Positions 8,426 to 63,725 of a stretch of 64,000 bases of DNA are shown piece by piece. Each line of letters begins with the position of its first letter. Position 1 is the stretch's first letter. The translations under genes were made by a program, and so were the position numbers. Below the pieces are notes generated by a model that worked only from the letters and a program-made list of their open reading frames with translations, had not been told where the DNA came from and searched no databases. The stretch is from a virus. The stretch lies in UHGV virus genome UHGV-0129253; one strand, 5' to 3'.

Positions 8426-9160
8426 ATGAAAAAGTTGAAAAGTTTAGAAATCCCTGGGACTGGTTATAAATTCTTTATGGACAACGCGGAGTGTGCACCT
8501 AACGCGTTGGAAAAAATACAAAGTCTTATCAACAGCCTTACTGAAGAAGCGAAAGAACTGAATAGCGAGGCGACAAAGGACAATACAGCTAAAATCCAAT
8601 GCTTAAATCTCGTTTCTTATTGTTTATATCAAGTGTCCAAGACACTGATTAAAGGCAATATCTATTACGACGATGAAGACACCTCGACACCTGAAGAAAA
8701 AGATAGCGATGAAGAACTCTATGAAGATATCTCTACTAGTGCGGGTCACGCTGCCTTCGATGCTATGGGTAAATCGTCAGGCATCAGATCGTTTGTTGAA
8801 CAGAACAATTCGACAATAATGATTGAGTACTGTGAACAAACAAGCTCCAAGGCCATACATGTTCTTCACGATGTTGCTGCAGGGGTTCGCTGTGAGGCTG
8901 AAGCGGTCAGAAAAGATGTATTTGGTGCAGACAGTAATACCGTGAAAGCGTTCATCAACAGTGCTCTGCTAAATTCTTACTCAAACCTTATCGTCAATGC
9001 GGCACTATGCGCAAATTCTGGTGAAGAACACATTGTCATAACCGAAACCAAATATGAGCATCAACAGTCACCAACCATAGAAGAGGTAACTGCATTGGCT
9101 ATCAAACAGGCGAGTGAAATTAGTGATGAAATTCTCTCTCTGCTAAACAAAACTAAGTAA
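8426..9160 (+). CDS. Hypothetical acidic protein
   Basis: 244-aa ORF with acidic stretches (DDEDTSTPEEKDSDEELYED). Confidence 0.5.
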   Translation: MKKLKSLEIPGTGYKFFMDNAECAPNALEKIQSLINSLTEEAKELNSEATKDNTAKIQCLNLVSYCLYQVSKTLIKGNIYYDDEDTSTPEEKDSDEELYEDISTSAGHAAFDAMGKSSGIRSFVEQNNSTIMIEYCEQTSSKAIHVLHDVAAGVRCEAEAVRKDVFGADSNTVKAFINSALLNSYSNLIVNAALCANSGEEHIVITETKYEHQQSPTIEEVTALAIKQASEISDEILSLLNKTK

Positions 9161-9229
9161 AACATTGATAATGGCGGTCACAATTTGATTCTTTTCTATA
9201 AGAATCCGTTGATCGCCACTACTCCCCTT

Positions 9230-10020
9230 CCATGCCTGGAATCACATCCTTAAATATCAATAGGTTACAGTTGTTTATACCAATAAGAAAACAACTGAAT
9301 AACAGATCAACGAAACATCAACGCTTTCACCCGATTTGGTCTAAAAAATTGACGTTTTCACACATCACTGCTTATACCCGTAATTCTACGCAGCAGACAG
9401 CGCCACAGCGTCCAATTTTCACCACAGACGACCCAACACACTACCAACAAAAACACACGCTCAAAATCGCTCCCGTTGCGTTACACAACCATATAAACAA
9501 CTTATTTTCAGGTATAACGAAACAACTAAATAACACATATGCCATTTCCAAAAACAACCAACCTCTTTATGGCAGGCTACCGAAAAGACCCACCTCTTCT
9601 CCCCAGGCTACCGGACAACCAACCTAACTTTCACAGGCAATCCGAAAACATTCATACGCGCGATACCCACGACACGCCATTACCCAAACAGCGAAGAAAC
9701 ACCAGAATCACTGAACCCCCAACGAAGCCTGTAACCGCAAGGCTTCTCTCAATCCCAAAAGACACGAAACAGAACAATCACGGGAAACGCCATTACCCAA
9801 CACACGAATAACTACAAAAGCCTTTCACACACTCCAGACAAACAACTCAAACACAATAACGAAAGGAATCGCCCACCTGCCATTACTCCATACACGGAGA
9901 AGAACAATCACCAAAACGACGAGAACACCCCATAGAAGAACCACCGCAAAACGAACGAAACCACATACACCGACAGAGAAAACAACACACCCAATTCACC
10001 AACAGAAATAGTCGCCGTAT
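9230..10020. other. G-depleted A+C-rich noncoding tract (~0.8 kb)
   Basis: Plus strand ~12-15% G by hand count on three 60-nt lines; ORFs in it translate to low-complexity sequence. Confidence 0.5.
9551..9653 (+). repeat. Direct repeats of CAGGCTACCG(A/G)A(A/C)AA..CC(A/C)ACCT (3-4 copies)
   Basis: Same family recurs at 13565-13648. Confidence 0.4.
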
Positions 10021-40458: not shown

Positions 40459-40475
40459 ACAAGGATTTTTTGAAC

Positions 40476-43400
40476 ATGGAACAGTTCAAGAAGAAAAAGC
40501 TACCGCTGTTTATTGCCGGTGCGGGTGGTAAAAAAAGCAGCAAAAGCTCCAGCCGTACACCGGTTGAAGCCGACGATACCGTAAATTCTCGTGCAATGGC
40601 CGCTATCCTCGATCTTCTTGGGGAAGGGGTAATTGGCGGCTTAGTAAATGGCGCAAGATCTATTTTTATCGACGATCTGCCGATTGTAAATGAAGACGGT
40701 TCCTCCAACTTCAGCGGAATCACATGGGATTTTCGCGACGGTTCACAAGACCAGACTCCAATGTCTGGCTTTGATTTCGTTGAAACGCCTAAATCCGTCA
40801 ATATCCAGTTAAAAAAAACACATTATGTAACGGTTTCAATCGATAACGATGAAGCTGATCGGGTTCGTGTCATCATGAAGTTTCCTTCTTTGCGAAGCAT
40901 AGATAAAAAAACTGGTGACACGAACGGTACGACTGTTGAGTACAAGTTCCAGATAGCAAATGGCGACTCAACATTTGTAGATGTGGTCGCTGAAGGTGAA
41001 AAAAGCGTTGGCATTAAGCTAACAGCAAAGAAGACCGGCGTTTATTACCGTAGCTATGAGCTGAAGCTGCCTAAGCCTGGACGAGCATACAAGGTTCGTG
41101 TGGTCCGTATTACCGATGATAACAGCAGCCAGTATCTCTATAACGATACATGGGTGGACTCAATAGGTGAGATTGTAGATACACCGATGAACTACCCAAA
41201 CTCTGTGCTGGTGGGTCTGAAGGTTAATTCTGAGCAGTTTGGTAGCACCATGCCATCTCGTTCGTATTTGGTACGTGGATTAAAAATTCGCGTGCCGTCA
41301 AACTACAACGAGGCCAGCAACACTTATGATGGTGTATGGGATGGCACTTTTAAGCTGTTGTCTTCTTCAAACCCCGCGTGGATTCTCTTTGATTTGCTGA
41401 CCAATGCTCGATATGGCCTTGGTCAGTATGTGTCGGAATCTATGATTGACCTTGGCCAGTTGTACCAGATTGGTCGATATTGTGACGAAGAGGTCGATGA
41501 TGGCTTTGGTGGCAAAGAGAAACGCTTTGCAATCAATACGCAGATCACCAGTCGACAGGACGCATACCGGCTAATTCAGGATATTGCCGGAGCATTCCGC
41601 GGCATGGTGTTTTGGGCTGGTGGGATGGTCAACATCATGCAGGATAGCCCATCAGATCCGGTAATGATGTTTACCAACTCTAACGTCAAAGATGGATTGT
41701 TTACCTATAAAGGTTCTGCGCGTAAAGATCGCCCATCCGTTGCGCTCGTAACCTACAACAACAAGGAGGACGGTTATAAGCAAAACATCGAGTACGTCGA
41801 AGATCAGGACGCAATGCGCCGTTATGGTGAGCGTAAAACAGAAGTCGTAGCATTTGGCTGTACAAGCCGAGGGCAGGCTCACCGAGTTGGTTTGTGGCTT
41901 TTATATACCGCCAGAATGGAGTCGGATGTAATTACATTTACTGCCGGCTTAGACGCGTCATTTCTGATGCCTGGTGAAACCGTTCTGATTCAGAACAAAT
42001 ATCGCGCAGGCAAACGTAACTCAGGTCGAATTGTGGCGTTTACCAAAAACAGCGTCACACTCGATGCGCCTGTGTCGTTAGCCAAAGGCGGCTGCTTTAT
42101 TCGAATACTGAATCAGGAAGGCAAAATCGTTGAACGCGATGTTCTTGAAACTGGCGAAAATATAACAAAAGTTACGTTTTCAAAAGACCTGTCTTCGGCT
42201 GAAACGCCTGTTTTGAACGGCGTCTGGACTATTACAGAACCAGACCTCGAACCTATGCGCGTTCGCATCGTTAACATCGCGCAGGGGGAAACGCCGGGTA
42301 GCTTTGACATCACCGCTGTTGAGAACAATCCGTCTAAATATGAGGCAATCGACAATGGTGCAACGCTGATTCCGCAGAATACGACGGTATTGGACCCAAC
42401 TTACTCCAAGCCATCTAATTTGCAAATCACTGAAGGGACTTATCTCTCAAGCCCGGGCAACCTGTCAGTAAAACTGACTGCAACATGGGAAGGGAAATCT
42501 CCAGAGTATTGGATCAGTTGGCGACGTTCTGATGAAAACAATGTATCGAACTGGCAATCGGCGCGTGTAACCGAAGAGCAATACGAAATCGTTAATGTCG
42601 CGGAGAATGGACGCTACGACTTCCAGCTGTATGCGGTTTCATTCAACGGTAAAAAAACAGAGATTATCAGTGCCGTTTATCAGGTGTTGGGCACAATGAC
42701 ACCGCCGGATTCCCCAACGTCATTAACGGCCGTTGGAGACTATCGTAATGTGATACTGAATTGGGTTAATCCAGATTCGGTAGACCTTGATCACATTAAT
42801 GTTTACGCATCCCAGACCAACAATCTGGATACGGCGAAACTGATCGCAGAGTCTGCAAGCACCACCTTTACACATGCTGGTCTTGGGGATAGCGAAACGT
42901 GGTATTACTGGGTTCGAGCATCGAACAAGCGAGGTATGTTAAGTCCTCCGAACTCAAACTTGGGTACAGAGGCGACAACTCGCGATGTACTGTCGTTCCT
43001 GACTGGCAAAATTACATCTTCCGAGCTTGGTCAGGCTCTGCTTGAGGACATCAACAGCAAAGCCTCTCAAGAAGCAGTTGACGAGTTAAATGAGCATATC
43101 AACCAGAGCGTCGAATCTTTGGAGGGGGCGGTAAACGACGTTAAGGAAGATATAGCTGAATTAGATAAGCAGTTCAGCGATAACCTCGCGGATTTTGAAA
43201 TAAAATTCAACGAGCGTAGCGATGCTTTGGAGAACGCACAAACCGAGCTTAAAGGTGAGGTTTCGGCAACGATTGACAAGGTCAATGAAGCGTTTGAAAA
43301 AATTGATGCTACTGATGCTGCAATTGTTGAAATCGAAAACACCGTATCTGAACACGATAAAGCTCTCGCTAATACAGTCGAGGCAATAAAGGCTGCAAGA

Positions 43401-45203
43401 GATGAAGCGGCGGCTCTTATTGCTAAGGAAAGCGAGGCTCGTGTTGAAGGCGATGCTGCAAACGCTAAACAACTGGAAGTGTTGCAGTCAACGGTAGAGG
43501 AAAGCTCCGCTGCCGTTGAAGAAATGAAAAAGACGGTTGCAGAGGTCGATCGTGCCAGTGCAGAACTGACTACGAACATTGAGGCGTTAGCCAAAACAAA
43601 TATTGACCTGGCTCTTCGTCAAGATGAAGACCAGCACAAGCAGATGGTCAATAACGCGAAGATCGCAACAACACAGAAAACCTTTGCTGATGATATGTCT
43701 GCAATGGCCACGAAGGTTGAGGAAATTCGCGTAGAAATTGGCGAAGACATTAAGGCCAGTATTCTGGAAGAGTCCACCGCTCGTGCCGATGGCGATGAAG
43801 CGTTGGCAAAGCGTGTCACTCAGCTGCAATCTAAGTTTGAAGGAGATATCAGCGCGGCGATTAGTACAGAGCAGGAGGCTCGTACATCTGCCGATGAAGC
43901 TCTGACGACACAGATCACTCAGCTTGAGTCGAAAGTAAGCAACGATATCGTCGCAGCTATTAAGGAAGAACAAGAAGCCCGAGCAACGGAAGATTCGGCT
44001 CTGGCAAGCCAGATCACCCAACTTCAGGCAAAGGTTGATGATGATATTTCTGCTGCAATACGTAGTGAGCAGGAGGCCCGAGCAAGCGGGGACTCTGCGT
44101 TAGCCAAACAAATAAACCAGCTTCAGTCAAAGGTTGACGGTGATATATCCGCTGCCATCACTCAGGAGCAGGAGGCCAGAGCAAGTGCTGACCAGGCGCT
44201 CTCACGAGAAATTAACAGCCTGCGAGCACAAACCGGAACTGATATTGCCGCAGCGGTTGCTGTAGAGACAAAAGCAAGGACTGATGCCGATAGTGCATTG
44301 TCTACCCAGATTACGTCTCTTACAGCAAAAGCTAATGATCTCGAGGCGTCTCTTGCCAGAGAAACAACGGCTCGTGCAGATGGTGATACCGCTTTAACAA
44401 AAGAGGTTTCAAGTTTAAAAGCACAGACAGCGAAAGATATTAGTGCGGCCGTTGCAGTTGAAACGCAGGCTCGAACTGATGCTGACTCGGCGTTGTCGTC
44501 TCAGATCACCAAGCTGACCTCTCAATACAAAGAGGATATTAAAGCGGCTGTAGCAACCGAAACGAAAACGCGTACAGAGCAAGATGCTGCATTGGCGACT
44601 CAAATCACAAACTTAGAGTCTCAAACGGCAGCCAACATTTCCGCGGCGGTAACAACTGAAACGACAGCGAGAACGCAGGCAGATAATGCTCTGAGTGGGC
44701 GAATCGATACTCTGAAAGCAGAGGTGGATGGAAATACCGCGACAATTCAACAGCAGGCAACAGCTATTGCTGATACCAACAAAAAAGTATCAACCGCGTG
44801 GACGTTGAAAATGGAGACTTCAACGAGCGGAGGGCAGAAGTATGTTGCCGGTATTGCGCTTGGTATTGACACCACTGGGCTATCTCAGTTTTTGGTTCAG
44901 GCGGACAGGTTTGGTTTGGTCAACTCTGTTAACGGGAAGATCACAACGCCATTTGTTATCGAAAACAGTATCGCCTATATGAATGGAGCGTATATCAAGG
45001 ATGGCACAATCACCAATGCAAAAGTAGGCGATCTGCAATCTACCAATTTTGTTAGCGGTAGATCTGGATGGCGGTTCGGCAAAAATGGAACGCTTGAGAT
45101 CAACGGTAATAGCGGCGGCAATGGGCGATTGGTTATAAATGGTCAGCGGATTGACGTTTATGACGATAACAACGTCCTACGAGTAAGAATTGGCCGTCTG
45201 TGA
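40476..45203 (+). CDS. Central tail fibre / host specificity protein (lambda J-like)
   Basis: NYPNSVLVGLKVNSEQFG, AFGCTSRGQAHRVGLWL match gpJ; ~1575 aa. Confidence 0.85.
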   Translation: MEQFKKKKLPLFIAGAGGKKSSKSSSRTPVEADDTVNSRAMAAILDLLGEGVIGGLVNGARSIFIDDLPIVNEDGSSNFSGITWDFRDGSQDQTPMSGFDFVETPKSVNIQLKKTHYVTVSIDNDEADRVRVIMKFPSLRSIDKKTGDTNGTTVEYKFQIANGDSTFVDVVAEGEKSVGIKLTAKKTGVYYRSYELKLPKPGRAYKVRVVRITDDNSSQYLYNDTWVDSIGEIVDTPMNYPNSVLVGLKVNSEQFGSTMPSRSYLVRGLKIRVPSNYNEASNTYDGVWDGTFKLLSSSNPAWILFDLLTNARYGLGQYVSESMIDLGQLYQIGRYCDEEVDDGFGGKEKRFAINTQITSRQDAYRLIQDIAGAFRGMVFWAGGMVNIMQDSPSDPVMMFTNSNVKDGLFTYKGSARKDRPSVALVTYNNKEDGYKQNIEYVEDQDAMRRYGERKTEVVAFGCTSRGQAHRVGLWLLYTARMESDVITFTAGLDASFLMPGETVLIQNKYRAGKRNSGRIVAFTKNSVTLDAPVSLAKGGCFIRILNQEGKIVERDVLETGENITKVTFSKDLSSAETPVLNGVWTITEPDLEPMRVRIVNIAQGETPGSFDITAVENNPSKYEAIDNGATLIPQNTTVLDPTYSKPSNLQITEGTYLSSPGNLSVKLTATWEGKSPEYWISWRRSDENNVSNWQSARVTEEQYEIVNVAENGRYDFQLYAVSFNGKKTEIISAVYQVLGTMTPPDSPTSLTAVGDYRNVILNWVNPDSVDLDHINVYASQTNNLDTAKLIAESASTTFTHAGLGDSETWYYWVRASNKRGMLSPPNSNLGTEATTRDVLSFLTGKITSSELGQALLEDINSKASQEAVDELNEHINQSVESLEGAVNDVKEDIAELDKQFSDNLADFEIKFNERSDALENAQTELKGEVSATIDKVNEAFEKIDATDAAIVEIENTVSEHDKALANTVEAIKAARDEAAALIAKESEARVEGDAANAKQLEVLQSTVEESSAAVEEMKKTVAEVDRASAELTTNIEALAKTNIDLALRQDEDQHKQMVNNAKIATTQKTFADDMSAMATKVEEIRVEIGEDIKASILEESTARADGDEALAKRVTQLQSKFEGDISAAISTEQEARTSADEALTTQITQLESKVSNDIVAAIKEEQEARATEDSALASQITQLQAKVDDDISAAIRSEQEARASGDSALAKQINQLQSKVDGDISAAITQEQEARASADQALSREINSLRAQTGTDIAAAVAVETKARTDADSALSTQITSLTAKANDLEASLARETTARADGDTALTKEVSSLKAQTAKDISAAVAVETQARTDADSALSSQITKLTSQYKEDIKAAVATETKTRTEQDAALATQITNLESQTAANISAAVTTETTARTQADNALSGRIDTLKAEVDGNTATIQQQATAIADTNKKVSTAWTLKMETSTSGGQKYVAGIALGIDTTGLSQFLVQADRFGLVNSVNGKITTPFVIENSIAYMNGAYIKDGTITNAKVGDLQSTNFVSGRSGWRFGKNGTLEINGNSGGNGRLVINGQRIDVYDDNNVLRVRIGRL
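43780..44770 (+). repeat. Tandem in-frame ~87-bp repeats (>=10 units) encoding coiled-coil motif (D/S)AL(A/S)xQITxLxSKVxxDISAAIxxEQEAR
   Basis: Read directly in J-like translation. Confidence 0.6.
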
Positions 45204-45234
45204 TGGTGGAAAAAAAATTTTATATCGGTAAAAA

Positions 45235-45254
45235 TAGGTAAGTAATTACTTAAT
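45235..45254. promoter_or_regulatory. Late-type perfect palindrome GTAAGTAATTACTTA
   Basis: Upstream of tail fibre gene. Confidence 0.4.
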
Positions 45255-45296
45255 GGCGGGCAAGGATAACCCGCCAAATCAAGGAGCATATTCAAC

Positions 45297-48200
45297 ATGT
45301 GGTACAGGGAAGGTACTATCACATTTACACAGGGTAGCAATACTCTGGTTGGGGCAGGGACAGCCTGGAACGTAACAGCTAATGGTGTGTTGCCGGGGAT
45401 GATCGTCATTGGCCCCGACAATAAGCTGTATGAGATCAAGCGCGTAATAAGCGATACGAATATTGTTCTCTCAGAACCTTATACCGGCGAAACTCAGTCT
45501 GAAGTTCCGTGCCGAATCATTACGACCTATGAAGGCGACTTAACACAGTTTAGCGCGCGCTTTACTGCGCTAATGTCGCGTATGTCGGCTGATTCCAAGT
45601 CTATGCGCAGTTGGTTGACTGCGCTGGATGAGGTGACAATCGAGCGTGAAGACGGTACAGAAGTGGCCGTTAAGCCGCTGATGCAGATCGTCAACGAGCA
45701 CAACGAAAACGTTGAGTGGTATAAAAATAACACTGACGCGATTGATGCCGCTGGCGACAAAGCTCGTGAGGCGGCGGCCAGTGCTGCCGCAGCGGCAGAA
45801 AGCGCCAATACCGCTGGAGAAAAAGCCTCTCAAGCGTCTCAAAGTGCATCCGCTGCGGCATCCTCACAAAGTGCCGCAAGTGCGAGTGCAACTGCTGCGA
45901 AAAAATCTGAAACGAATGCTGCAGCGTCACAAAAATCTGCAGCCACTTCTGCATCCACCGCGACCACGAAAGCGTCAGAAGCTGCCACCTCAGCCAGAGA
46001 TGCGTCGGCTTCAAAAGAGGCGGCAAAATCATCAGAAACGAGCGCAGCCTCGAGCGCCAGTAGTGCAGCCTCCTCGGCAACAGCGGCAGGCAATTCCGCG
46101 AAGGCGGCAAAAACGTCCGAGACGAACGCCAGGTCTTCTGAAACGGCAGCGGGACAGAGTGCCTCGGCTGCGGCAGGCTCAAAAACAGCGGCTGCGTCGT
46201 CTGCCAGTGCCGCGTCAACAAGTGCCGGGCAGGCCTCAGCCAGTGCCACCGCCGCCGGAAAATCGGCAGAAAGTGCCGCATCGTCTGCTTCAACAGCCAC
46301 AACGAAGGCTGGCGAAGCCACTGAACAGGCCAGCGCAGCAGCGAGGTCTGCTTCCGCAGCGAAGACATCCGAAACGAACGCGAAAGCGTCGGAAACCAGC
46401 GCAGAATCCTCAAAAACGGCTGCCGCATCGTCCGCCAGTTCGGCGGCGTCATCGGCATCATCGGCGTCTGCTTCAAAAGATGAGGCGACCAGACAAGCGT
46501 CCGCAGCGAAGGGCAGCGCCACGACAGCATCCACGAAGGCGACAGAGGCAGCTGGCAGTGCGACGGCGGCAGCACAGAGCAAAAGTACGGCGGAATCCGC
46601 GGCAACGCGCGCCGAGACAGCGGCAAAACGGGCAGAGGATATTGCATCCGCCGTGGCGCTTGAGGATGCAAGTACGACGAAAAAGGGGATAGTACAGCTC
46701 AGCAGTGCGACCAACAGTACGTCTGAAACGCTGGCCGCAACGCCAAAAGCAGTTAAAGCAGCCAATGACAATGCGAATAGCAGGGTGCCATCTAACCGAA
46801 AAGTTAACGGAAAAGCACTGACTGCGGATATAACATTAACGCCGAAAGATATTGGTACTTTAAATTCAGTAACGATGTCTTTCTCTGGCGGGGCTGGGTG
46901 GTTCAAACTGGCTACGGTTACCATGCCACAAGCGAGTTCCATCGTTTACATCGCATTGATTGGTGGCGCTGGTTACAACGTCGGTTCCCCACATCAGGCA
47001 GGCATTTCAGAACTGGTTCTACGAGCAGGCAATGGAAACCCCAAAGGAATTACCGGGGCTTTGTGGAAGCGTACAGCCGTCGGATTAACGAATTTCGCCT
47101 GGATCAACACATCCGGCGATACATATGATATTTACGTTGAGATTGGCAATTATGCGACGAGTGTAAATATCCATTGGGATTGTACTGCAAATGCGTCAGT
47201 TTCTGTTTATACCTCGCCAACATATTCAGCGAGTAAGCCTTCCAGCGTTACCGATGGTGTTGTTTATACGATGTATAGCACACATCAGAAACCGACGCCG
47301 TTAGATATTGGAGCACTGCCAACAACCGGAGGAACAGTTTCAGGTCCGTTGTCTGTTACAGGTGGATTAACTGGTTCATTGAATGGTAATGCAAGTACAG
47401 CCACGAAATTGCAGACGGCAAGATCTATCGGTGGAGTTGTTTTCGACGGTTCTGCAAATATTAATTTGCCAGGTGTTAATACGACTGGTAATCAGAATAC
47501 AACGGGCAACGCTGCAACCGCTACAAAACTACAGACAGCGCGTACAATCAACGGTGTTAAGTTTGATGGTTCTGCGGACATAACGCTGACTCCTGCGAAC
47601 CTTGACGTATACAGCAAAAGCGAAATAGACAATAAAAAAGGGATGAGAAAATACACTTTTTCAGCGCCTGCAAATGCAGTAAGCGGTAAGTGGTATCCTA
47701 TAGTCTTTCGCCGATCTGGAGGCAGTACCGATGAATTAGCCTCACGAGTTGTGATAACTACTTATTCCTCAGCTGGCGGATACGCCATGAATAATTGTGA
47801 ATTTAATGGGTTTGTTATGCCTGGCGGTTGGTCTGATCGCGGTTCATATGCGGCTGGTTTTTTCTCAATATATTCTACTGCTGAGCGAGCTATACACTCG
47901 ATTATTTCAAGTGTGAAAGATGACGATTTGTGTAGTGTATTTTACGTTGAAGCCAGAGCATTCCCTATCAAGATATTTGCTGAGGAGGGCTTGAACGTAA
48001 TTGTTCCAACGGCTGATTATGCAGTTGGTCAAACCACTTATAAGTGGGGGGCAACTGATCCTTTATCAGAAAGTACGAATGCACAGATAATTTTGGACTT
48101 TAAAAATGGACGAGGTTATTACTGTTCACATCCATTTATTTCAAGTCTTTCAGGAAATGCTGCTACAGCAACGAAATTGCAGACTGCAAGAACTATCGGC

Positions 48201-50333
48201 GGCGTGGCCTTCGATGGATCTGCGAACATAAATTTGCCTGGTGTAAACACGGCAGGTAATCAGAATACAACGGGCAACGCGGCTACTGCTACGAAGTTGC
48301 AAACAGCGAGAAACATCAATGGTGTTAAGTTTGATGGCTCAGGCGATATCAACATTAATACACTGGTATCTCGTGGCCGAGTTACGGCGTTAAGCGGCTC
48401 TACTCAAGGCACTGCTGGCATTCAAATGTATGAGGCGTACAACAATAGCTACCCGACCATGTATGGCAACGTATTGCACATGAAAGGTGCGAGTGCTTCT
48501 GGTGAGGGCGAGATGCTTGTTGGCTGGAGCGGAACGGATGGTGCTCATGCACCGGTTTATGTTCGTTCACGCCGTGATACTTCGACAGCGAATTGGTCTG
48601 GTTGGGCGCAGGTCTATACCACTGCTCATAAACCCACAGCGAAAGATGTTGGGGCTGCACAGACGTTTAGCGCGTCATACAGTACTGGGGCTGGCAACTG
48701 GACTACCGCTGAATTTATCGCATGGCTGAAGGAGCGTGGTGCTTTCGCCGTACCGTATTGGATGATGAAAGGCTCTTGGTCATATGCCGACAATAAAATT
48801 ATCACTGATACAGGTGTCGGCAATATTTGTCTTGCTGGTGCGGTTATCGAGGTTTTAGGTCACGAAGGCGCAATGACCATCCGAGTTACTACGCCTACAA
48901 CGACAACCGGAGGTGGTATTGCCAGTGCTCAGTTCACCTATATTAATCACGGTAGCGCGTATGCCCCTGCCTGGCGCAGAGATTACAACACGACTCTCAA
49001 ACCCACTGCGGCTGATGTCGGTGCGTTGCCGAGCGGTGGCGGCACACTTTCCGGCGCACTCACATTATCTATGGCTGCGCCAAGTGTCCAGTTACGAGGG
49101 CAAGGTACGGACACCAGACAGTACATCATGGCTTACAGAACCGATGGCGCTACATCATGGTATGTGGGCAAGGCTAACAACGGCTCCGATAATGCGATGT
49201 TCTGGAACTATACCGGCTCCAACGGAATTGAATTGGCTGCCGATGGCAATGTGCGTATTAATGCGAAGGGTAAACAGTTTACGTTCGCAAACAATGGGAA
49301 CTTAGGTCTTGTTGCTTCGTTAGATCAGAGTTCAGTTCCACAGGGTACTTACCATCAAGTAGCTCTTAACACTGGCACTGTTGGTGGTAAATCGTACCTT
49401 CGAAAATTCCGCGGCGGCAACACAGACACCATTTGGCATGAGACGGTTCAGGGCGGCTTCCTTCGTTGGGCAACCGGCAATGCTGATGAGCAAGAAGAAC
49501 TGTCTATCAGTACTGGCTATGGTGTTCGAGCAAGAGGTGAAATCACTTCCCTTAGCGCCAATGGTCTAAGAGTGGCTTACGGGAATTACGGCTTCTTTAT
49601 TCGCAATGATGGCGGAACAACTTACTTCTTGCTGACTGCTTCTGGCGACAAGTTCGGAAGCTGGAATGCTTTGCGTCCAATGTACATTAACAACGCTTCA
49701 GGCGCGGTTACGATGGGGAACGGGTTGTCGCTTGCCGGTGGCTTAAATGTCACGAGCGGAAATATCCGAATCCCGACGTCGAGTACATCTTGGATCGACA
49801 TGAGAAACAATGCCGCTCTGTCTAACAGTTCTGCGGTTGCCACTTCCTCTGCATCGGCCATTATTCGTCAGGAGCACGCCGATCGTCATTATTTTGTTGG
49901 TGGTTTAGGCAACTCTCAGTTCGGGTTCTACATGATTAACAAGTCACGAACCGCGAACGGCACGGATGCGAACGCATACCTCCAGAATGACGGTACTTGG
50001 GTTTGCGGCGGTAATGGCAGCTTTAATGACGTTTATATCCGTTCTGACCGCCGTAGTAAGCGCAATATTCGCAAGATTGACCGGGCGCTCGACAAGCTGG
50101 AGCAGATCGAAGGTGTTCTCTACGAGATTCAGGTCTGTGGCCGTTATGAGCAGTCTGGTGGCCTCATCGCTCAGGATGTCCAGAATGTTCAACCTGAACT
50201 GGTAACGGTCGACCATAACGATCAGTCAGGAGAGCCTCGTCTGCGTCTTAACTACAACGGCGTTATCGGCATGTTGGTTGAGGCTGTCAAAGAGTTGCGC
50301 GAGGAAGTGCGCGAACTGAAGGCAAAAATGTAA
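45297..50333 (+). CDS. Side tail fibre with Ala/Ser-rich region, tail-fibre repeats and C-terminal S74 intramolecular chaperone domain
   Basis: Repeats GNAATATKLQTAR.I.GV.FDGS; C-terminal SDRRSKRNI...LREEVRELKAKM typical of endosialidase-type chaperone. Confidence 0.8.
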   Translation: MWYREGTITFTQGSNTLVGAGTAWNVTANGVLPGMIVIGPDNKLYEIKRVISDTNIVLSEPYTGETQSEVPCRIITTYEGDLTQFSARFTALMSRMSADSKSMRSWLTALDEVTIEREDGTEVAVKPLMQIVNEHNENVEWYKNNTDAIDAAGDKAREAAASAAAAAESANTAGEKASQASQSASAAASSQSAASASATAAKKSETNAAASQKSAATSASTATTKASEAATSARDASASKEAAKSSETSAASSASSAASSATAAGNSAKAAKTSETNARSSETAAGQSASAAAGSKTAAASSASAASTSAGQASASATAAGKSAESAASSASTATTKAGEATEQASAAARSASAAKTSETNAKASETSAESSKTAAASSASSAASSASSASASKDEATRQASAAKGSATTASTKATEAAGSATAAAQSKSTAESAATRAETAAKRAEDIASAVALEDASTTKKGIVQLSSATNSTSETLAATPKAVKAANDNANSRVPSNRKVNGKALTADITLTPKDIGTLNSVTMSFSGGAGWFKLATVTMPQASSIVYIALIGGAGYNVGSPHQAGISELVLRAGNGNPKGITGALWKRTAVGLTNFAWINTSGDTYDIYVEIGNYATSVNIHWDCTANASVSVYTSPTYSASKPSSVTDGVVYTMYSTHQKPTPLDIGALPTTGGTVSGPLSVTGGLTGSLNGNASTATKLQTARSIGGVVFDGSANINLPGVNTTGNQNTTGNAATATKLQTARTINGVKFDGSADITLTPANLDVYSKSEIDNKKGMRKYTFSAPANAVSGKWYPIVFRRSGGSTDELASRVVITTYSSAGGYAMNNCEFNGFVMPGGWSDRGSYAAGFFSIYSTAERAIHSIISSVKDDDLCSVFYVEARAFPIKIFAEEGLNVIVPTADYAVGQTTYKWGATDPLSESTNAQIILDFKNGRGYYCSHPFISSLSGNAATATKLQTARTIGGVAFDGSANINLPGVNTAGNQNTTGNAATATKLQTARNINGVKFDGSGDININTLVSRGRVTALSGSTQGTAGIQMYEAYNNSYPTMYGNVLHMKGASASGEGEMLVGWSGTDGAHAPVYVRSRRDTSTANWSGWAQVYTTAHKPTAKDVGAAQTFSASYSTGAGNWTTAEFIAWLKERGAFAVPYWMMKGSWSYADNKIITDTGVGNICLAGAVIEVLGHEGAMTIRVTTPTTTTGGGIASAQFTYINHGSAYAPAWRRDYNTTLKPTAADVGALPSGGGTLSGALTLSMAAPSVQLRGQGTDTRQYIMAYRTDGATSWYVGKANNGSDNAMFWNYTGSNGIELAADGNVRINAKGKQFTFANNGNLGLVASLDQSSVPQGTYHQVALNTGTVGGKSYLRKFRGGNTDTIWHETVQGGFLRWATGNADEQEELSISTGYGVRARGEITSLSANGLRVAYGNYGFFIRNDGGTTYFLLTASGDKFGSWNALRPMYINNASGAVTMGNGLSLAGGLNVTSGNIRIPTSSTSWIDMRNNAALSNSSAVATSSASAIIRQEHADRHYFVGGLGNSQFGFYMINKSRTANGTDANAYLQNDGTWVCGGNGSFNDVYIRSDRRSKRNIRKIDRALDKLEQIEGVLYEIQVCGRYEQSGGLIAQDVQNVQPELVTVDHNDQSGEPRLRLNYNGVIGMLVEAVKELREEVRELKAKM
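45760..46650 (+). repeat. Low-complexity Ala/Ser/Thr-rich coding repeat (GC-rich) inside the tail fibre gene
   Basis: Generates long spurious ORFs in other frames and on the minus strand. Confidence 0.6.
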
Positions 50334-50399
50334 TCAAGGTGAATGGTGAGGGGCCACCCTCACCAATTCAGGATATTCACATCAAAAAGGAGATTAGAT

Positions 50400-51182
50400 G
50401 TGCCAATTGTCGGTGTTCCCGGTTGGATTGGGTCTTCGGCTGTCAGTGTGACAGGCCAGAGATGGATGAGTGCGGCTCGAACGGCGGTGCAACTGCCAGC
50501 GGCTGGTTCAATGTCTCAAATGGCCGGGCGATCTAAAGAAGTTCAGTACAGCATCGGTGCGAATCATAACTACAACAAAGACACACTGATCAACTATTTA
50601 AAATCCCAGGGGGCGACGCCAGTCGTTGTTACCATTACAGGGGATCTGGTGTCGTCCAGTAGCGGCGTGCCATGTTTAGATTTCCCGAGTTCACTTACCA
50701 ACTCTTATATCAGCCTTGTAATCAACGCAGGTGTGACTGTCTATGGACGCGGTGGCAATGGTGGTAGTAACGCTGCCGGTGCTGCTGGTGGTAACGCAAT
50801 TAATAATGGCATCGGTACACGCTTGCGTATTACGAATAATGGTGCAATCGCTGGAGGTGGTGGCGGCGGTGGCGGCGGTAACAGGGGTCGACTAGTATTT
50901 GGTGGTGGCGGTGGGTGCCCATTCGGTGCTGGTGGGTCTTCCTCTCATATGAGTTCCGGTGCAACTGCTGGTACTATTTCCACTCCTGGTAAGGGATCTG
51001 TTGGTGAGGGGTCTCTTAGTGCATATACAGGCGGTTCGGGTGGTAATGTCGGTGCTGCTGGAGGAAGATGTAATACTCAAGGTAACGGTACAGAATATAA
51101 CGGCGGAGCAGCTGGTAAAGCTGTTACTGGTAATGCTCCAACTTGGACTAAAGTTGGGGCAATTTACGGCGCTCATGTGTAA
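50400..51182 (+). CDS. Glycine-rich protein, possibly tail fibre-associated
   Basis: GTG 50400 with AAGGAG 7 nt upstream; poly-Gly tracts. Confidence 0.45.
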   Translation: MPIVGVPGWIGSSAVSVTGQRWMSAARTAVQLPAAGSMSQMAGRSKEVQYSIGANHNYNKDTLINYLKSQGATPVVVTITGDLVSSSSGVPCLDFPSSLTNSYISLVINAGVTVYGRGGNGGSNAAGAAGGNAINNGIGTRLRITNNGAIAGGGGGGGGGNRGRLVFGGGGGCPFGAGGSSSHMSSGATAGTISTPGKGSVGEGSLSAYTGGSGGNVGAAGGRCNTQGNGTEYNGGAAGKAVTGNAPTWTKVGAIYGAHV

Positions 51183-51195
51183 GTACTTACCTACC
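51177..51195. promoter_or_regulatory. Late-type palindrome GTAAGTACTTAC
   Basis: Upstream of lysis cassette. Confidence 0.35.
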
Positions 51196-51256
51196 AAGTG
51201 TGGGCGTTTTATGATATAAAACCGCCATCCCGATTTGACTTTTCATGGAGGAAAAC

Positions 51257-51580
51257 ATGTCGAACGAGATGGCGGGCGTTACAACAGAGCAAGTTGAGCG
51301 TATTGCCGCGATCGTTGCTCGGGAGGTTGTTGGCAAATTAGGTAAAGAGCTACGTGAAGAAATTGGCCAGGAGGTCAATGATCAGCTGAAAACCTACTTT
51401 GGTGATATGACCCCGGCGCAACATAGTATTCAACACTCCAATCTGGACAAACTCCTTAACCGGTTAGATTCCATCTCAAGTGGGTTCTTTGGCGGCATTG
51501 TTTCTAAAATAACGTCGTTCATTATTACCGCACTGCTTTTGGGGTTAGCCGCGTATGGCGTAAAAAGTGGACTGCAATAA
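51257..51580 (+). CDS. Putative holin or membrane lysis protein (single C-terminal TM)
   Basis: Hydrophobic FIITALLLGLAAYGV; first gene of lysis cassette. Confidence 0.4.
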   Translation: MSNEMAGVTTEQVERIAAIVAREVVGKLGKELREEIGQEVNDQLKTYFGDMTPAQHSIQHSNLDKLLNRLDSISSGFFGGIVSKITSFIITALLLGLAAYGVKSGLQ

Positions 51581-51593
51581 CAGGAGATCAAGG

Positions 51594-52286
51594 ATGAAAA
51601 CTCCGAGAGGCATTCGTAATAACAACCCTGGCAACCTCGACAAAGGTTCGCCGTGGCAGGGGCTAATCGACAACCCTGCCGAACCGCGCTTTTGCACGTT
51701 TAAAGACCCTGTTTGGGGGATTCGTGCGCTGGCGGTGACTCTAATTACCTACCACGACAAACGTCGCGCAAAAGACGGCTCAAGTATCGATACCATTCGT
51801 GAAGTTATTGAACGTTGGGCACCGCCGAATGAAAACAATACTGACGCCTACATTAATGAGGTGTCTAAAGCCGTTGGTGTAACCGCAGACATGATTATCG
51901 ATCTGCATGATTACGACATTCTTCGACCTTTGGTTGAGGCAATCATTCGCCATGAGAATGGGCGAGGTCCGCTAAAAACGCTGAACACCTGGTATGCGGC
52001 AGAAGTTATTGAGGAAGGTCTGCGTCGAGCTGGCGTTGTTAAGCCGGCGAAAACCGTGAAGGCTGTTCCTGTAACTAAAGAAACCGCAGGCGCAACTGTT
52101 ACAGCAGGTATTGGTCTGGCGCAGCTGGCCGATGTTATGCCGCAGGTTTCCGCTGCTATGGATAAAGCACAAGGTCATATCTCTAGCGGGGATACAGTAC
52201 GCATCATCTTCGGTATTGCCACCATTGTTGTGGCAGGATTCATTGCCTGGTCGCAGGTAAGAAAACACCAGAAAGGGATGGTCTAA
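51594..52286 (+). CDS. Putative endolysin / lysis protein (by position), with C-terminal TM segment
   Basis: 230 aa between holin-like and spanin genes; function not recognised from sequence. Confidence 0.35.
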   Translation: MKTPRGIRNNNPGNLDKGSPWQGLIDNPAEPRFCTFKDPVWGIRALAVTLITYHDKRRAKDGSSIDTIREVIERWAPPNENNTDAYINEVSKAVGVTADMIIDLHDYDILRPLVEAIIRHENGRGPLKTLNTWYAAEVIEEGLRRAGVVKPAKTVKAVPVTKETAGATVTAGIGLAQLADVMPQVSAAMDKAQGHISSGDTVRIIFGIATIVVAGFIAWSQVRKHQKGMV

Positions 52287-52707: not shown

Positions 52708-53229
52708 TTATTCTTCGAACAATTTTTCGATAGATTTTGTTGGATAGAACAAAGAACGATCGTTGTTACCAACCAGCTGGATAAAGCCCAAACTTTTATA
52801 AAACGCCCTGGCTTTATCGTTCAACGCCTCAACGAAAAGCCCATGAATGCCTACCGCAAGAGATGCATTGTACACAACACGCATTGCGTGAGTTACAAGC
52901 ATTGAGCCAAGCCCCTGACCTTGAAGAGATTTGTCCAAAGCCAGTCTGCCTAAAGTGATACTTGGGACATTCCGATAAGGCACTTTCTTTTGCTGACTCT
53001 TTGAAGGTAAGGTTTCTTTCTCAAAGCAGCTGCCTGACAAAGTGTAATAACCTAATACCTTTGGTATTTCTTCTTTAGTGCAAAGCACATAAGCGCGAAG
53101 AATTTTTCCTTCATGCTGTCTTTTTAAGTGGTTGGTCAAAAATGCGTTTAGTGACTCTTCGCCGCAATCAAAACCGTTTAGATCATAATCGTTCTCTCCA
53201 GAGAAAATCTCGATCGTCGTATTGCTCAC
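52708..53229 (-). CDS. GNAT-family toxin (TacT/AtaT/KacT-like type II TA toxin)
   Basis: 173 aa GNAT; paired with upstream DUF1778-type antitoxin. Confidence 0.75.
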   Translation of the reverse strand: MSNTTIEIFSGENDYDLNGFDCGEESLNAFLTNHLKRQHEGKILRAYVLCTKEEIPKVLGYYTLSGSCFEKETLPSKSQQKKVPYRNVPSITLGRLALDKSLQGQGLGSMLVTHAMRVVYNASLAVGIHGLFVEALNDKARAFYKSLGFIQLVGNNDRSLFYPTKSIEKLFEE

Positions 53230-53236
53230 GAGTAAA

Positions 53237-53506
53237 TTACTCCATGCTTTTCAGACGATTGGCAGCTCGTTTCAGCTTGTCGTTCGGTGCCGGAGGATTG
53301 CTTATAGCATCCATAACCAGATTCCAGGACTCTTCACTTAGAACCAGTCTACGGTGTTGCTCTATCACCTTCACGGCACGTTCGGATGCACTGCTAACCA
53401 TGAACTGGGTAATGCTCTGGTTAGACATTGCGGCAGCTTCCTCGATGATGCTTTTATCGTCATCGGTTAATCTCAAATCGATGCGCTGCTTTTTCAGTGC
53501 GGACAT
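53237..53506 (-). CDS. DUF1778 / RHH antitoxin (TacA/AtaR-like)
   Basis: 89 aa, 7 nt upstream of the GNAT gene on the same strand. Confidence 0.75.
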   Translation of the reverse strand: MSALKKQRIDLRLTDDDKSIIEEAAAMSNQSITQFMVSSASERAVKVIEQHRRLVLSEESWNLVMDAISNPPAPNDKLKRAANRLKSME

Positions 53507-53825: not shown

Positions 53826-54494
53826 ATGACCAAGATCTTTGTGGTTGGCGGCACAAAGGGCGGGCCTGGCAAATCCACTGTTGCCCAGCAAATTGCCGTT
53901 TGCCTGAAAGTCAAAAAGAAGAAGAAGGTTTATATCACTGATATAGATATTCAGCGCACGACAACAAGCTGGTGTGAAGACCGTAGACAGAACGAAGACC
54001 TTGAGCTGATTCCTTTTGCATACGTTCAGGATGACATCATTAAGCACCTAAAATCGCTTCAGGGTAGAGCTGAGTTTGTAGTGGTAGATGCTGGTGGCTT
54101 TGACTCCGAAATTCAGCGACAAGCGATGCTGATGGCCGACGTTATCATTATCCCGCTTCGTCCCAAGCGTCGTGATTTGAAATCTCTGCGTGACATTGAT
54201 CCTATTATCGACAATGTTCGTAATGTAAACGATAAAGTGAAGGTCCGCGCGGTCATGAACCAGTGCCCGGCTTTGCCATCACAAGTGTCTCGCATTCTGG
54301 CGGCTAAAGAGATTGTTGAGACGTTTGGCATCGAGTCTGCGCCAGTCAATTTATATAACCGCAACGTCTATGATGATGCGGAAGAGTCTGGTCGTTCTAT
54401 CTTTGAAATGACCGGTAGCGAGCGCGACAAAAAGGCGGAAGCCGAGTTTGAAGAATTTGTAGATTATCTGTTGAGTCTGGAGGAAGAAGAATAA
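53826..54494 (+). CDS. ParA/ParF-type partition ATPase
   Basis: Deviant Walker A GGTKGGPGKST; 222 aa. Confidence 0.8.
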   Translation: MTKIFVVGGTKGGPGKSTVAQQIAVCLKVKKKKKVYITDIDIQRTTTSWCEDRRQNEDLELIPFAYVQDDIIKHLKSLQGRAEFVVVDAGGFDSEIQRQAMLMADVIIIPLRPKRRDLKSLRDIDPIIDNVRNVNDKVKVRAVMNQCPALPSQVSRILAAKEIVETFGIESAPVNLYNRNVYDDAEESGRSIFEMTGSERDKKAEAEFEEFVDYLLSLEEEE

Positions 54495-63478: not shown

Positions 63479-63553
63479 GATGGTGTAGCTCAGCGGTAGA
63501 GCAGTTGGCTGTTAACCAACTGGTCGGTGGTTCGAATCCACCCACCATCGCCA
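63479..63553 (+). tRNA. tRNA-Asn (anticodon GUU)
   Basis: Hand-folded cloverleaf: acceptor GATGGTG/CACCATC, D-stem GCTC/GAGC, anticodon loop CTGTTAA, T-arm GGTGG-TTCGAAT-CCACC, encoded CCA; unlike the enterobacterial tRNA-Asn as I recall it. Confidence 0.8.
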
Positions 63554-63558
63554 ATTTA

Positions 63559-63645
63559 GGGGAGTTAGTCCGTAGGGGCAGCGGGGTAGACTGTAAATCT
63601 ACTGTCATTGCGACTCGGGTGGTTCGACTCCATCACTCCCCACCA
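63559..63645 (+). tRNA. tRNA-Tyr (anticodon GUA), type II with long variable arm; D-arm non-canonical
   Basis: Acceptor GGGGAGT/ACTCCCC, anticodon arm GTAGA-CTGTAAA-TCTAC, variable-arm hairpin GTC-ATTGC-GAC, T-arm GGTGG-TTCGACT-CCATC, encoded CCA. Confidence 0.6.
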
Positions 63646-63649
63646 AATT

Positions 63650-63725
63650 GCCGGTTTAGCTCAGTTGGTAGAGCGCCTGCCTTGTAAGCAGGATGTCAGC
63701 GGTTCGATCCCGTTAACCGGCACCA
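63650..63725 (+). tRNA. tRNA-Thr (anticodon UGU)
   Basis: Acceptor GCCGGTT/AACCGGC, D-stem GCTC/GAGC, anticodon arm CCTGC-CTTGTAA-GCAGG, T-loop TTCGATC, encoded CCA. Confidence 0.8.

Follow-up and report, generated by a model that had tools for sequence, protein, structure and literature searches.

A predicted T2/S16-type gp38 adhesin next to a chaperone-ended side tail fibre in an SSU5-like phage-plasmid

In phage S16, the last 113 residues of the fibre protein gp37 are removed by autocleavage after trimerisation, and the hydrophobic surface that is thereby exposed is the site at which gp38 docks by its N-terminal tryptophans (PMC7917993). Chaperone cleavage and docking of gp38 have also been described for RB49 and for the 'vast majority' of phages of the T-even-like type (PMC9569957), and most long tail fibres of T-even phages have an intramolecular chaperone combined with gp38 as their standard arrangement (PMC9569957, PMC7917993). 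In the papers found by a literature search, gp38 is treated as a feature of the Straboviridae (PMC12032242), and its occurrence in phage-plasmids is not discussed in any of them. The present analysis concerns UHGV virus genome UHGV-0129253, of which a stretch of 64,000 nucleotides (nt), hereafter called the window, was analysed, and within it a side tail fibre gene and the adjoining gene for a glycine-rich protein. The window is an SSU5-like Escherichia coli phage-plasmid with a lambda-type tail tip, in which the fibre gene is found in the stf position and the glycine-rich gene in the tfa position. The locus is very probably the host-recognition module of this siphoviral phage-plasmid and would consist of a trimeric side fibre and a separate tip adhesin. 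The two genes and the main parts of the putative adhesin are located as follows:

45297..50333, + strand: side tail fibre gene, 1678 amino acids (aa), in stf position directly after the J-like gene; PHROG tail-fibre families with E=0
50400..51182, + strand: gp38 tail-fibre adhesin, 260 aa, GTG start, assigned by Pfam, PHROG, PDB and an AlphaFold2 model
50400..50525, + strand: N-terminal docking domain of gp38, aa 1-42 (Gp38_N), with Trp9 and Trp22
50760..51179, + strand: polyglycine receptor-binding region of gp38, aa ~121-260, with glycine-rich motifs and four hypervariable segments; recombination breakpoint at its 5' edge

A preliminary description of the window had reported a 1678-aa fibre that is followed by a 260-aa poly-glycine protein in place of a classical tail-fibre assembly gene. 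Both proteins were recovered: the fibre is encoded by a single open reading frame (ORF; 45297-50333), and the second protein starts at GTG 50400 and contains 23% glycine, including runs of nine and five residues (G9 and G5). The sole match of Tandem Repeats Finder, a 9-nt unit GGTGGCGGC present 2.3 times, is located in the G9 run. No classical assembly gene follows the fibre; gp38 is succeeded by putative holin, endolysin-like and Rz-like spanin genes.

As judged from homology and a structural model, the glycine-rich protein is an adhesin of the T2/S16-type gp38 family with the corresponding predicted fold. It matches the Pfam families PF05268 GP38 (2.7e-69; 233.8 bits, cut-off 25) and PF21721 Gp38_N (1.2e-14; 54.5 bits, cut-off 25), PHROG 2056, described as 'tail fiber protein; host specificity' (2e-91), and the sequence of S16 gp38 in the PDB entry 6f45_D, which is chain D of the gp37-gp38 crystal (2.2e-46). 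An NCBIfam scan yielded no match for either the fibre or gp38, though the Prokaryotic Genome Annotation Pipeline (PGAP) names the gp38 of relatives 'receptor-recognizing protein'. Structure prediction, which had been proposed as a check, produced an AlphaFold2 model from 50 homologues with a mean predicted local distance difference test score (pLDDT) of 91.6. The model has the gp38 fold: Foldseek aligned it with 6f45_D at an E-value of 3.9e-21, template modelling (TM) scores of 0.81/0.85 and a root-mean-square deviation of 2.6 Å. PP01 gp38 (9v85) reached TM scores of 0.76/0.88, and in the PDB, structures of gp38 alone match the model. Like S16 gp38, to which it is 41% identical, the protein is built of three parts, namely a tryptophan-bearing docking domain, a central domain and a polyglycine sandwich. 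W9, W22 and the glycines of the glycine motifs are invariant across the 50 homologues, and only the segments between the glycine motifs vary. A role of tryptophan 'prongs' in the docking of gp38 has been described (PMC7917993).

The gene occupies the position of tfa, and some homologues are named 'distal long tail fiber assembly catalyst' in databases. The protein could thus be a mere fibre assembly factor similar to T4 gp38 or lambda Tfa, which is neither part of the virion nor able to bind a receptor. However, this explanation is hardly credible: by family, the protein is a T2/S16 adhesin and not a Tfa/T4-gp38 protein, the fibre possesses its own chaperone, and allele variation is concentrated in hypervariable segments, as expected of a receptor binder. 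Moreover, amber mutants of T6 gp38 form normal-looking virions, which do not adsorb (PMC3157838). The earlier guess of an 'adhesin tip' therefore stands in the form of a T2/S16-type gp38, whereas the 'unknown role' that was also assigned to the protein does not, because the family of the protein has a name in Pfam and a crystal structure and because the pairing of chaperone and gp38 is standard in most long tail fibres of T-even phages. For annotation, the glycine-rich protein can be called gp38 and the fibre one of the chaperone-then-adhesin type, and no new hypothesis is needed.

The fibre gene ends at 50333 and gp38 starts at 50400, so that the adhesin gene adjoins a fibre gene with a terminal S74 domain. 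GTG 50400 was chosen as the start codon because AAGGAG lies 7 nt upstream, 49 aligned homologues, which were trimmed to a common start, begin there, and PGAP calls a protein of 260 aa in the closest relative, the plasmid pF404-2. A start at ATG 50343 (279 aa) was rejected, since only 1 nt separates AAGGTG from this ATG, the start overlaps a hairpin, and the homologues begin at the methionine equivalent to the GTG. The same long-ORF call, of 280 aa, is found in databases for P0004, a gp38 allele of a related phage-plasmid. Two elements precede the gene:

50344..50365, + strand: perfect 9-bp hairpin, TGGTGAGGG gcca CCCTCACCA, between the fibre stop codon and the gp38 ribosome-binding site, without a T-run
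50387..50392, + strand: Shine-Dalgarno sequence AAGGAG of gp38, 7 nt before GTG 50400

The hairpin is identical in pF404-2; it was not called in a terminator scan and is not a canonical terminator. The Shine-Dalgarno sequence and the start codon of gp38 are enclosed by a weaker inverted repeat (50378-50402). Another perfect hairpin without a T-run (45255-45276; GGCGGG...CCCGCC) is found just 5' of the ribosome-binding site of the fibre gene. These structures might tune a fibre-to-gp38 ratio of 3:1. Promoter and terminator scans of 44800-52000 gave nothing above the shuffled expectation.

The end of the fibre is formed by two parts, which are important for the proposed attachment of gp38:

49431..50042, + strand: distal shaft and tip, aa 1379-1582, similar to Mu gpS and T4 gp34, ending in ...GNGSFNDVYIR
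50043..50333, + strand: Peptidase_S74 intramolecular chaperone, aa 1583-1678 (96 aa and the stop codon), Pfam PF13884 with E 5.9e-11

The presence of a C-terminal S74 chaperone, which had already been proposed, is backed by a Pfam match above the cut-off (42.9 bits, cut-off 22; residues 1583-1637), by an alignment with S16 gp37 and by a profile. The motif SDRRSK begins at residue 1583, and Ser1583 and Lys1588 correspond to the dyad of this chaperone type, a catalytic serine at the cleavage site and a lysine five residues downstream. The chaperone follows a Gp34_trimer/Mu-S-like shaft as the last 96 of the 1678 residues and aligns with S16 gp37 (6f45_A, 8e-13), with SDRRSKR opposite SDRRIKK. 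The profile (A3) combines six C-termini, those of this fibre, of SSU5, of a further phage-plasmid, of Bas45 gp37 and of two fibres from prophages, and none of them deviates at Ser1583 or Lys1588. It matched S16 gp37 (7e-16), 8jov (1e-8), MYRF (7dc3, 1e-6) and the GA-1 neck appendage (3gud, 3e-4). A comparison with the chaperones of endosialidase and T5 had been suggested beforehand and was successful in part: the profile reached the L-shaped fibre of T5 (8hqz) weakly with an E-value of 0.035, whereas endosialidase NF was recovered from the PDB neither with the single sequence nor with the profile. With the single sequence, a phmmer search of the PDB retrieved S16 gp37 and 8jov only, and neither endosialidase nor T5.

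The fibre is predicted to be cut between R1582 and S1583 (DVYIR^SDRRSK). Known cut sites are DLNVS^SDRRIKK in S16 and DVYIR^SDGRLKI in fPS phages; the tip motif DVYIR is thus that of the fPS phages (PMC7917993), and VYIR is shared with Bas45 gp37. The mechanism suggested by the homology to the S16, fPS and RB49 tips and by the site DVYIR^SDRRSKR comprises autocleavage, docking, stoichiometry and a receptor that are all inferred. The chaperone would nucleate trimer folding of the distal shaft, and cleavage after Arg1582, catalysed by Ser1583 and Lys1588, would release it. This would expose the hydrophobic tip of the trimer, and aa 1379-1582 are predicted to provide the docking surface for gp38. 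One gp38 monomer would plug into the tip by its Gp38_N domain with Trp9 and Trp22. The polyglycine-II sandwich would then present the loops of the four hypervariable segments and bind an outer-membrane protein, most probably OmpA. It weighs against the docking step that the fibre residues before the cut site are Mu-S-like and, the last five aside, unlike the tips of S16 and T-even gp37; docking is therefore suggested by the co-occurrence of Gp38_N and the chaperone rather than by a conserved interface.

The locus thus resembles the S16/T2-type tip (PDB 6F45) in that a fibre with a terminal S74 domain and an SDRR.K cut site is immediately followed by gp38. In contrast to the S16/T2 type, it is not located in a myovirus of the Straboviridae, but in an SSU5-like phage-plasmid, which is temperate and has lambda-like tail genes, and the backbone is not a T4-like one with gp34 to gp37 genes as for the Straboviridae long tail fibre. 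The fibre body also differs from T-even gp37: it is Stf-, Mu-S- and gp34-like and shares about 40-46% identity with any gp37 in the last 300 aa. A closer relative is found in SSU5, whose gp21 and gp22 belong to the same lineage and locus. The SSU5 fibre contains Gp34_trimer and S74 domains and is 73% identical in the last 300 aa, and gp22, a 'tail fiber adhesin', begins with a Gp38_N docking domain. However, SSU5 gp22 consists of 178 aa and lacks the polyglycine GP38 domain, and the SSU5 fibre is shorter with 1260 aa.

The receptor can be predicted by comparison with the gp38 alleles of typed phages. For Bas45/PaulHMueller (Tequatrovirus), identity to the gp38 of the window is 67% in aa 1-60, 84% in aa 61-150 and 93% in aa 151-260; the corresponding values are 28%, 51% and 94% for FL18 (Mosigvirus), 63%, 84% and 94% for JSE (Krischvirus), and 57%, 47% and 67% for T6, which uses Tsx. 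The phage-plasmid allele P0004 is 100% identical in aa 1-150 and 75% identical in aa 151-260. The gp38 proteins of Bas45, FL18 and JSE therefore have a near-identical receptor-binding region with essentially the same hypervariable segments, whereas the docking and central domains in the window are of the phage-plasmid type, and the fibres of these phages are unrelated to the fibre studied here except for the VYIR^SD junction. Of the four hypervariable segments, two are the same as in Bas45 and FL18, and the conservative substitutions R164K, V166I and T195A are the only differences in the other two. Bas45 requires ompA, as demonstrated by knockout and complementation (PMC8594841), FL18 depends on OmpA, and close gp38 variants recognise the same receptor (PMC12032242). 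Because the hypervariable segments nearly match those of these two OmpA-dependent phages, OmpA is the best prediction for the receptor and a reasonably probable one.

It could also be that the architecture is the same, but that gp38 binds Tsx, another porin or an O-antigen. Several points weigh in this direction. One substitution within a hypervariable segment can be enough to change the receptor, as with Q206L from OmpF to OmpW, and RB49-type gp38 proteins, which share 88% nt identity in the receptor-binding region, use O-antigens besides OmpA (PMC9569957), so that the assignment to OmpA is not secure. Furthermore, OmpA 'type 2' adhesins such as that of FL18 have been described as near to Tsx binders (PMC12032242), and the sister allele P0004 carries T6-like, Tsx-type loops on an identical scaffold. 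A receptor other than OmpA is nevertheless rather unlikely, given that the two identical segments are shared with two phages whose dependence on OmpA was tested independently, that three substitutions are the sole differences in the remaining two, and that T6 shows a 4-residue deletion and a 4-residue insertion in addition to its lower identity in this region. As the adhesin has the same allele in its receptor-binding half, experimentally typed T-even phages allow the receptor of a phage-plasmid that has not been cultured, here OmpA, to be predicted.

The division of gp38 into a phage-plasmid-type half and a T-even-type half is also visible at the DNA level. Compared to the gp38 gene of Bas45, nt identity amounts to 53-75% in nt 1-360, 92-100% in nt 361-720 and 80% in the last 60 nt. 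Divergence at third codon positions drops from 0.55 to 0.17 at the breakpoint, which is located at nt ~360 and falls on the first glycine motif, YGRGGNGGSN. The last 333 bp of gp38 are 91.6-94.2% identical to Bas45, FL18 and JSE and, at about the same closeness, 95% identical to the phage-plasmid CMS-2020a. The same phage-plasmid scaffold carries either this OmpA-type region or, in P0004, a T6-like one. The breakpoint together with the occurrence of OmpA- and Tsx-type alleles on an identical scaffold shows past exchange; temperate elements of the siphoviral type and virulent T-even phages therefore have receptor-binding alleles in common. Module shuffling mediated by glycine motifs has already been described within the T-even phages (PMC3157838); here, such shuffling crosses between virulent myoviruses and temperate siphoviral elements. 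The sharp breakpoint at the first glycine motif is a mildly new point. The added value of the comparison is modest and consists of the receptor prediction and the clear evidence for allele sharing between temperate phage-plasmids and T-even phages.

It is conceivable, if somewhat short of probable, that one actively exchanged pool of gp38 alleles joins virulent T-even phages, SSU5-like phage-plasmids and at least one chromosomal siphoviral prophage family, with the glycine motifs as crossover points. If this were true, a T-even phage that superinfects a cell with a resident phage-plasmid could acquire a new receptor specificity from the plasmid or pass one on to it, in a natural parallel to the laboratory crosses of T-even phages with plasmid-borne g38 (PMC3157838; bioRxiv 10.64898/2026.04.02.716166). 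Exchange of gp38 between the two lifestyles may be of some frequency and ecological weight. The gene order of fibre, gp38 and holin (window 50400-51580) equals that of g37, g38 and t in Bas45 (L003 3898-5368), although the backbones are unrelated; this is probably a coincidence, but the exchanged module would thereby adjoin lysis genes in both backbones.

Homologs of gp38 are found in virulent as well as temperate elements. In the phage collection, 758 records match gp38; among 60 sampled records, all were T4-like genomes of 155-178 kb, except for CMS-2020a and one incomplete genome. A 'receptor-recognizing protein' was annotated by PGAP in 87 plasmid records, including 40 from Enterobacter, 30 from Escherichia and 13 from Citrobacter. 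At least 80% of this exact locus is present in nine of 5426 complete E. coli genomes. A profile search of genome contigs with the gp38 alignment produced two marginal loci among the matches listed, with the glycine pattern dominating. A chromosomal siphovirus-like prophage family was encountered in E. coli (assemblies L005, L006 and L007; NZ_AP027634, NZ_CP071263 and NZ_CP122768). Its genes are arranged in the order of a fibre of 1166-1179 aa with Gp34_trimer and Peptidase_S74 domains, a tail-tube gene and gp38, and its gp38 is 83% identical to that of the window. A 5.6-kb stretch of the prophage tail region had no megablast match in the phage collection. Because this family also carries gp38, gp38 cassettes exist on at least three virus backbones. 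Given the occurrence of gp38 in 87 plasmid records and in chromosomal prophages, gp38-based tools for receptor prediction and host-range engineering could be extended to temperate elements, which should be counted in the reservoir of gp38 alleles. Some of these temperate elements carry antibiotic-resistance genes (PMC9600943).

The assignment of the window to the phage-plasmids is based on matches to plasmids, SSU5 and CMS-2020a, on the lambda-like tail genes and on lysis and maintenance genes. The locus matches 543 plasmid records, the best of which are non-mobilizable E. coli plasmids of 106-120 kb, and related plasmids are typed as IncFIB or rep_cluster_488. The closest relative, pF404-2, is 96.6% identical across the whole locus; further matches are Salmonella phage SSU5 and Escherichia phage CMS-2020a. 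Genes for terminase, portal, Ig-domain structural proteins and a tape-measure protein of 1530 aa are located 5' of the fibre, as are lambda-like tail genes M, L, K, I and J, and the J-like gene ends at 45203. The structural ORFs were scanned in part for a sheath gene. On the 3' side of gp38 lie a match to the putative holin of SSU5, then an endolysin-like gene and then a gene for an Rz-like spanin.

Many phage-plasmids are defective, and nothing in the window by itself speaks for inducibility. The locus could therefore be a remnant in decay, located on a defective plasmid prophage and without a functional fibre. A peculiarity of gp38 weighs towards such decay: residue 173 (window 50916-50918) is a cysteine within the conserved glycine motif (GGGGG-C-PFG), where at least 90% of the aligned homologues have an arginine. 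Cys173 also occurs in cluster P0003 and in the gp38 of FL18, which is an infectious phage. A remnant is very unlikely, however: both ORFs are intact, including approximately 900 nt of low-complexity sequence that is easily broken by frameshifts, the ribosome-binding sites are intact as well, and the structural and lysis module is complete. In addition, it has been shown that SSU5-like phage-plasmids are inducible and packaged in virions (PMC9600943).

The fibre of the locus is a mosaic, whose proximal and central parts are as follows:

45297..45743, + strand: N-terminal ~150 aa; nt 1-524 of the locus match only SSU5-like elements (CMS-2020a, Cyrano, SSU5)
45744..46661, + strand: Ala/Ser-rich low-complexity shaft, aa ~150-455, assigned by composition
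46608..46802, + strand: conserved collar motif KKGIVQLSSATNSTSETLAATPKAVKAANDNANSRV, aa 438-502, aligning with Mu gpS residues 91-156 (5yvq)
47364..47627, + strand: first GNAxTATKLQTAR...FDGS repeat pair, aa 690-777, found by regular-expression search
48132..48395, + strand: second GNAATATKLQTAR...FDGS repeat pair, aa 946-1033, found by regular-expression search
48636..49028, + strand: Mu S/S'-like domain, aa 1114-1244, PDB 8ju3_A with a domain E-value of 1.8e-50
49089..49265, + strand: gp37_trimer-like domain, aa 1265-1323, Pfam PF20744 with 25.4 bits (cut-off 21.7)

The ATG start codon of the fibre gene is located 10 nt past AAGGAG at 45281-45286. Lambdoid phages match the fibre locus only from nt 525 on, and the N-terminal ~150 aa probably form a lineage-specific anchor to the SSU5-type tail tip. 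The Ala/Ser-rich low-complexity region and the lambda Stf-like character of the fibre, both noted in the preliminary description, were found again. Alanine and serine account for 40-66 of 100 residues in the blocks covering residues 101-500 and for 13-23 in the remaining blocks; the region extends over residues ~150-455, and Tandem Repeats Finder detected no DNA tandem array in it. The term Stf-like holds because nt 525-2328 of the locus are 90-95% identical to lambdoid 'side tail fiber' genes. The repeat GNA(A/S)TATKLQTAR.I.GV.FDGS..I is present in four copies, which form one pair at residues 702/742 and another at 958/998. The segments with the ATKLQTAR repeats matched no Pfam family; Phage_fiber_2 matches the collar motif only (22.5 bits, cut-off 22). 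The locus resembles lambda Stf/Tfa in its position after J and in the Ala/Ser-rich shaft and first repeat pair, which fall within the stretch of 90-95% nt identity. Unlike in lambda, there is no Tfa-type gene; an S74 chaperone is present for folding and gp38 for receptor binding.

The distal shaft resembles the fibres of Mu and P1 (gpS/gpU and S/U; 5yvq, 8ju3), to which aa 1114-1244 and 1379-~1572 are homologous. The domain E-values are 3e-56 for 5yvq_A and 1e-21 for T4 gp34 (4uxe), and the Pfam family Gp34_trimer matches at aa 1399-1464 with 5.8e-25. The C-terminal part of Mu gpS is the chaperone-binding and receptor-binding tip. The convincing alignment with gpS ends near WVCGG (fibre residue ~1572, gpS residue ~426), and the rest of gpS is replaced by the chaperone in the window.

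Spurious ORFs of 300-370 aa are present in another plus-strand frame and on the minus strand at 45691-46942; they were rejected as artefacts of low-complexity, GC-rich codons. In the annotation of pF404-2 (L001 6395-7396), the fibre is cut to 1226 aa and a minus-strand 'hypothetical protein' is called, though the ORF of 1678 aa is intact; such truncation is probably a recurrent annotation error. In the sister SSU5-like plasmid pRHBSTW-00180_3 (L004, 5001-9961), the fibre gene is 98% identical over its first 3262 nt. The fibre of this plasmid then diverges and has a length of 1345 aa, but still ends in an S74 chaperone. Two ORFs of 84 and 202 aa without a Pfam match replace gp38 and are an alternative tip cassette.

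The J-like central fibre protein (window 40470-45203) consists of 1577 aa and is about 190 aa longer than the J homologue of SSU5. Its residues ~830-1400 are rich in alanine, glutamate and glutamine and contain repeated units of the type ...DISAAI..EQEAR...D.AL..QI..L...; this stretch sits between the J core and a Phage_Tail_Tip domain. A GNAT-family toxin and a DUF1778 antitoxin are encoded at 52708-53506 (- strand), a ParA-like partition ATPase at 53826-54494 (+ strand) and a tRNA-Asn/Tyr/Thr cluster at 63479-63725 (+ strand), all of which are plasmid-maintenance or accessory features of the phage-plasmid. An Rfam scan of the window identified the three tRNAs and nothing else, and thus no match in a stretch of about 800 bp at 9230-10000, whose plus strand consists nearly completely of A and C. 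The GC skew is -0.37 and the AT skew +0.34 for 9001-10000. This stretch holds one doubtful ORF of 131 aa (9232-9627) and degenerate direct repeats, GCCATTACCCAA... at 9676, 9789 and 9879 and 31-nt units at 9552-9643, and is possibly an origin, an iteron-like or a regulatory region.

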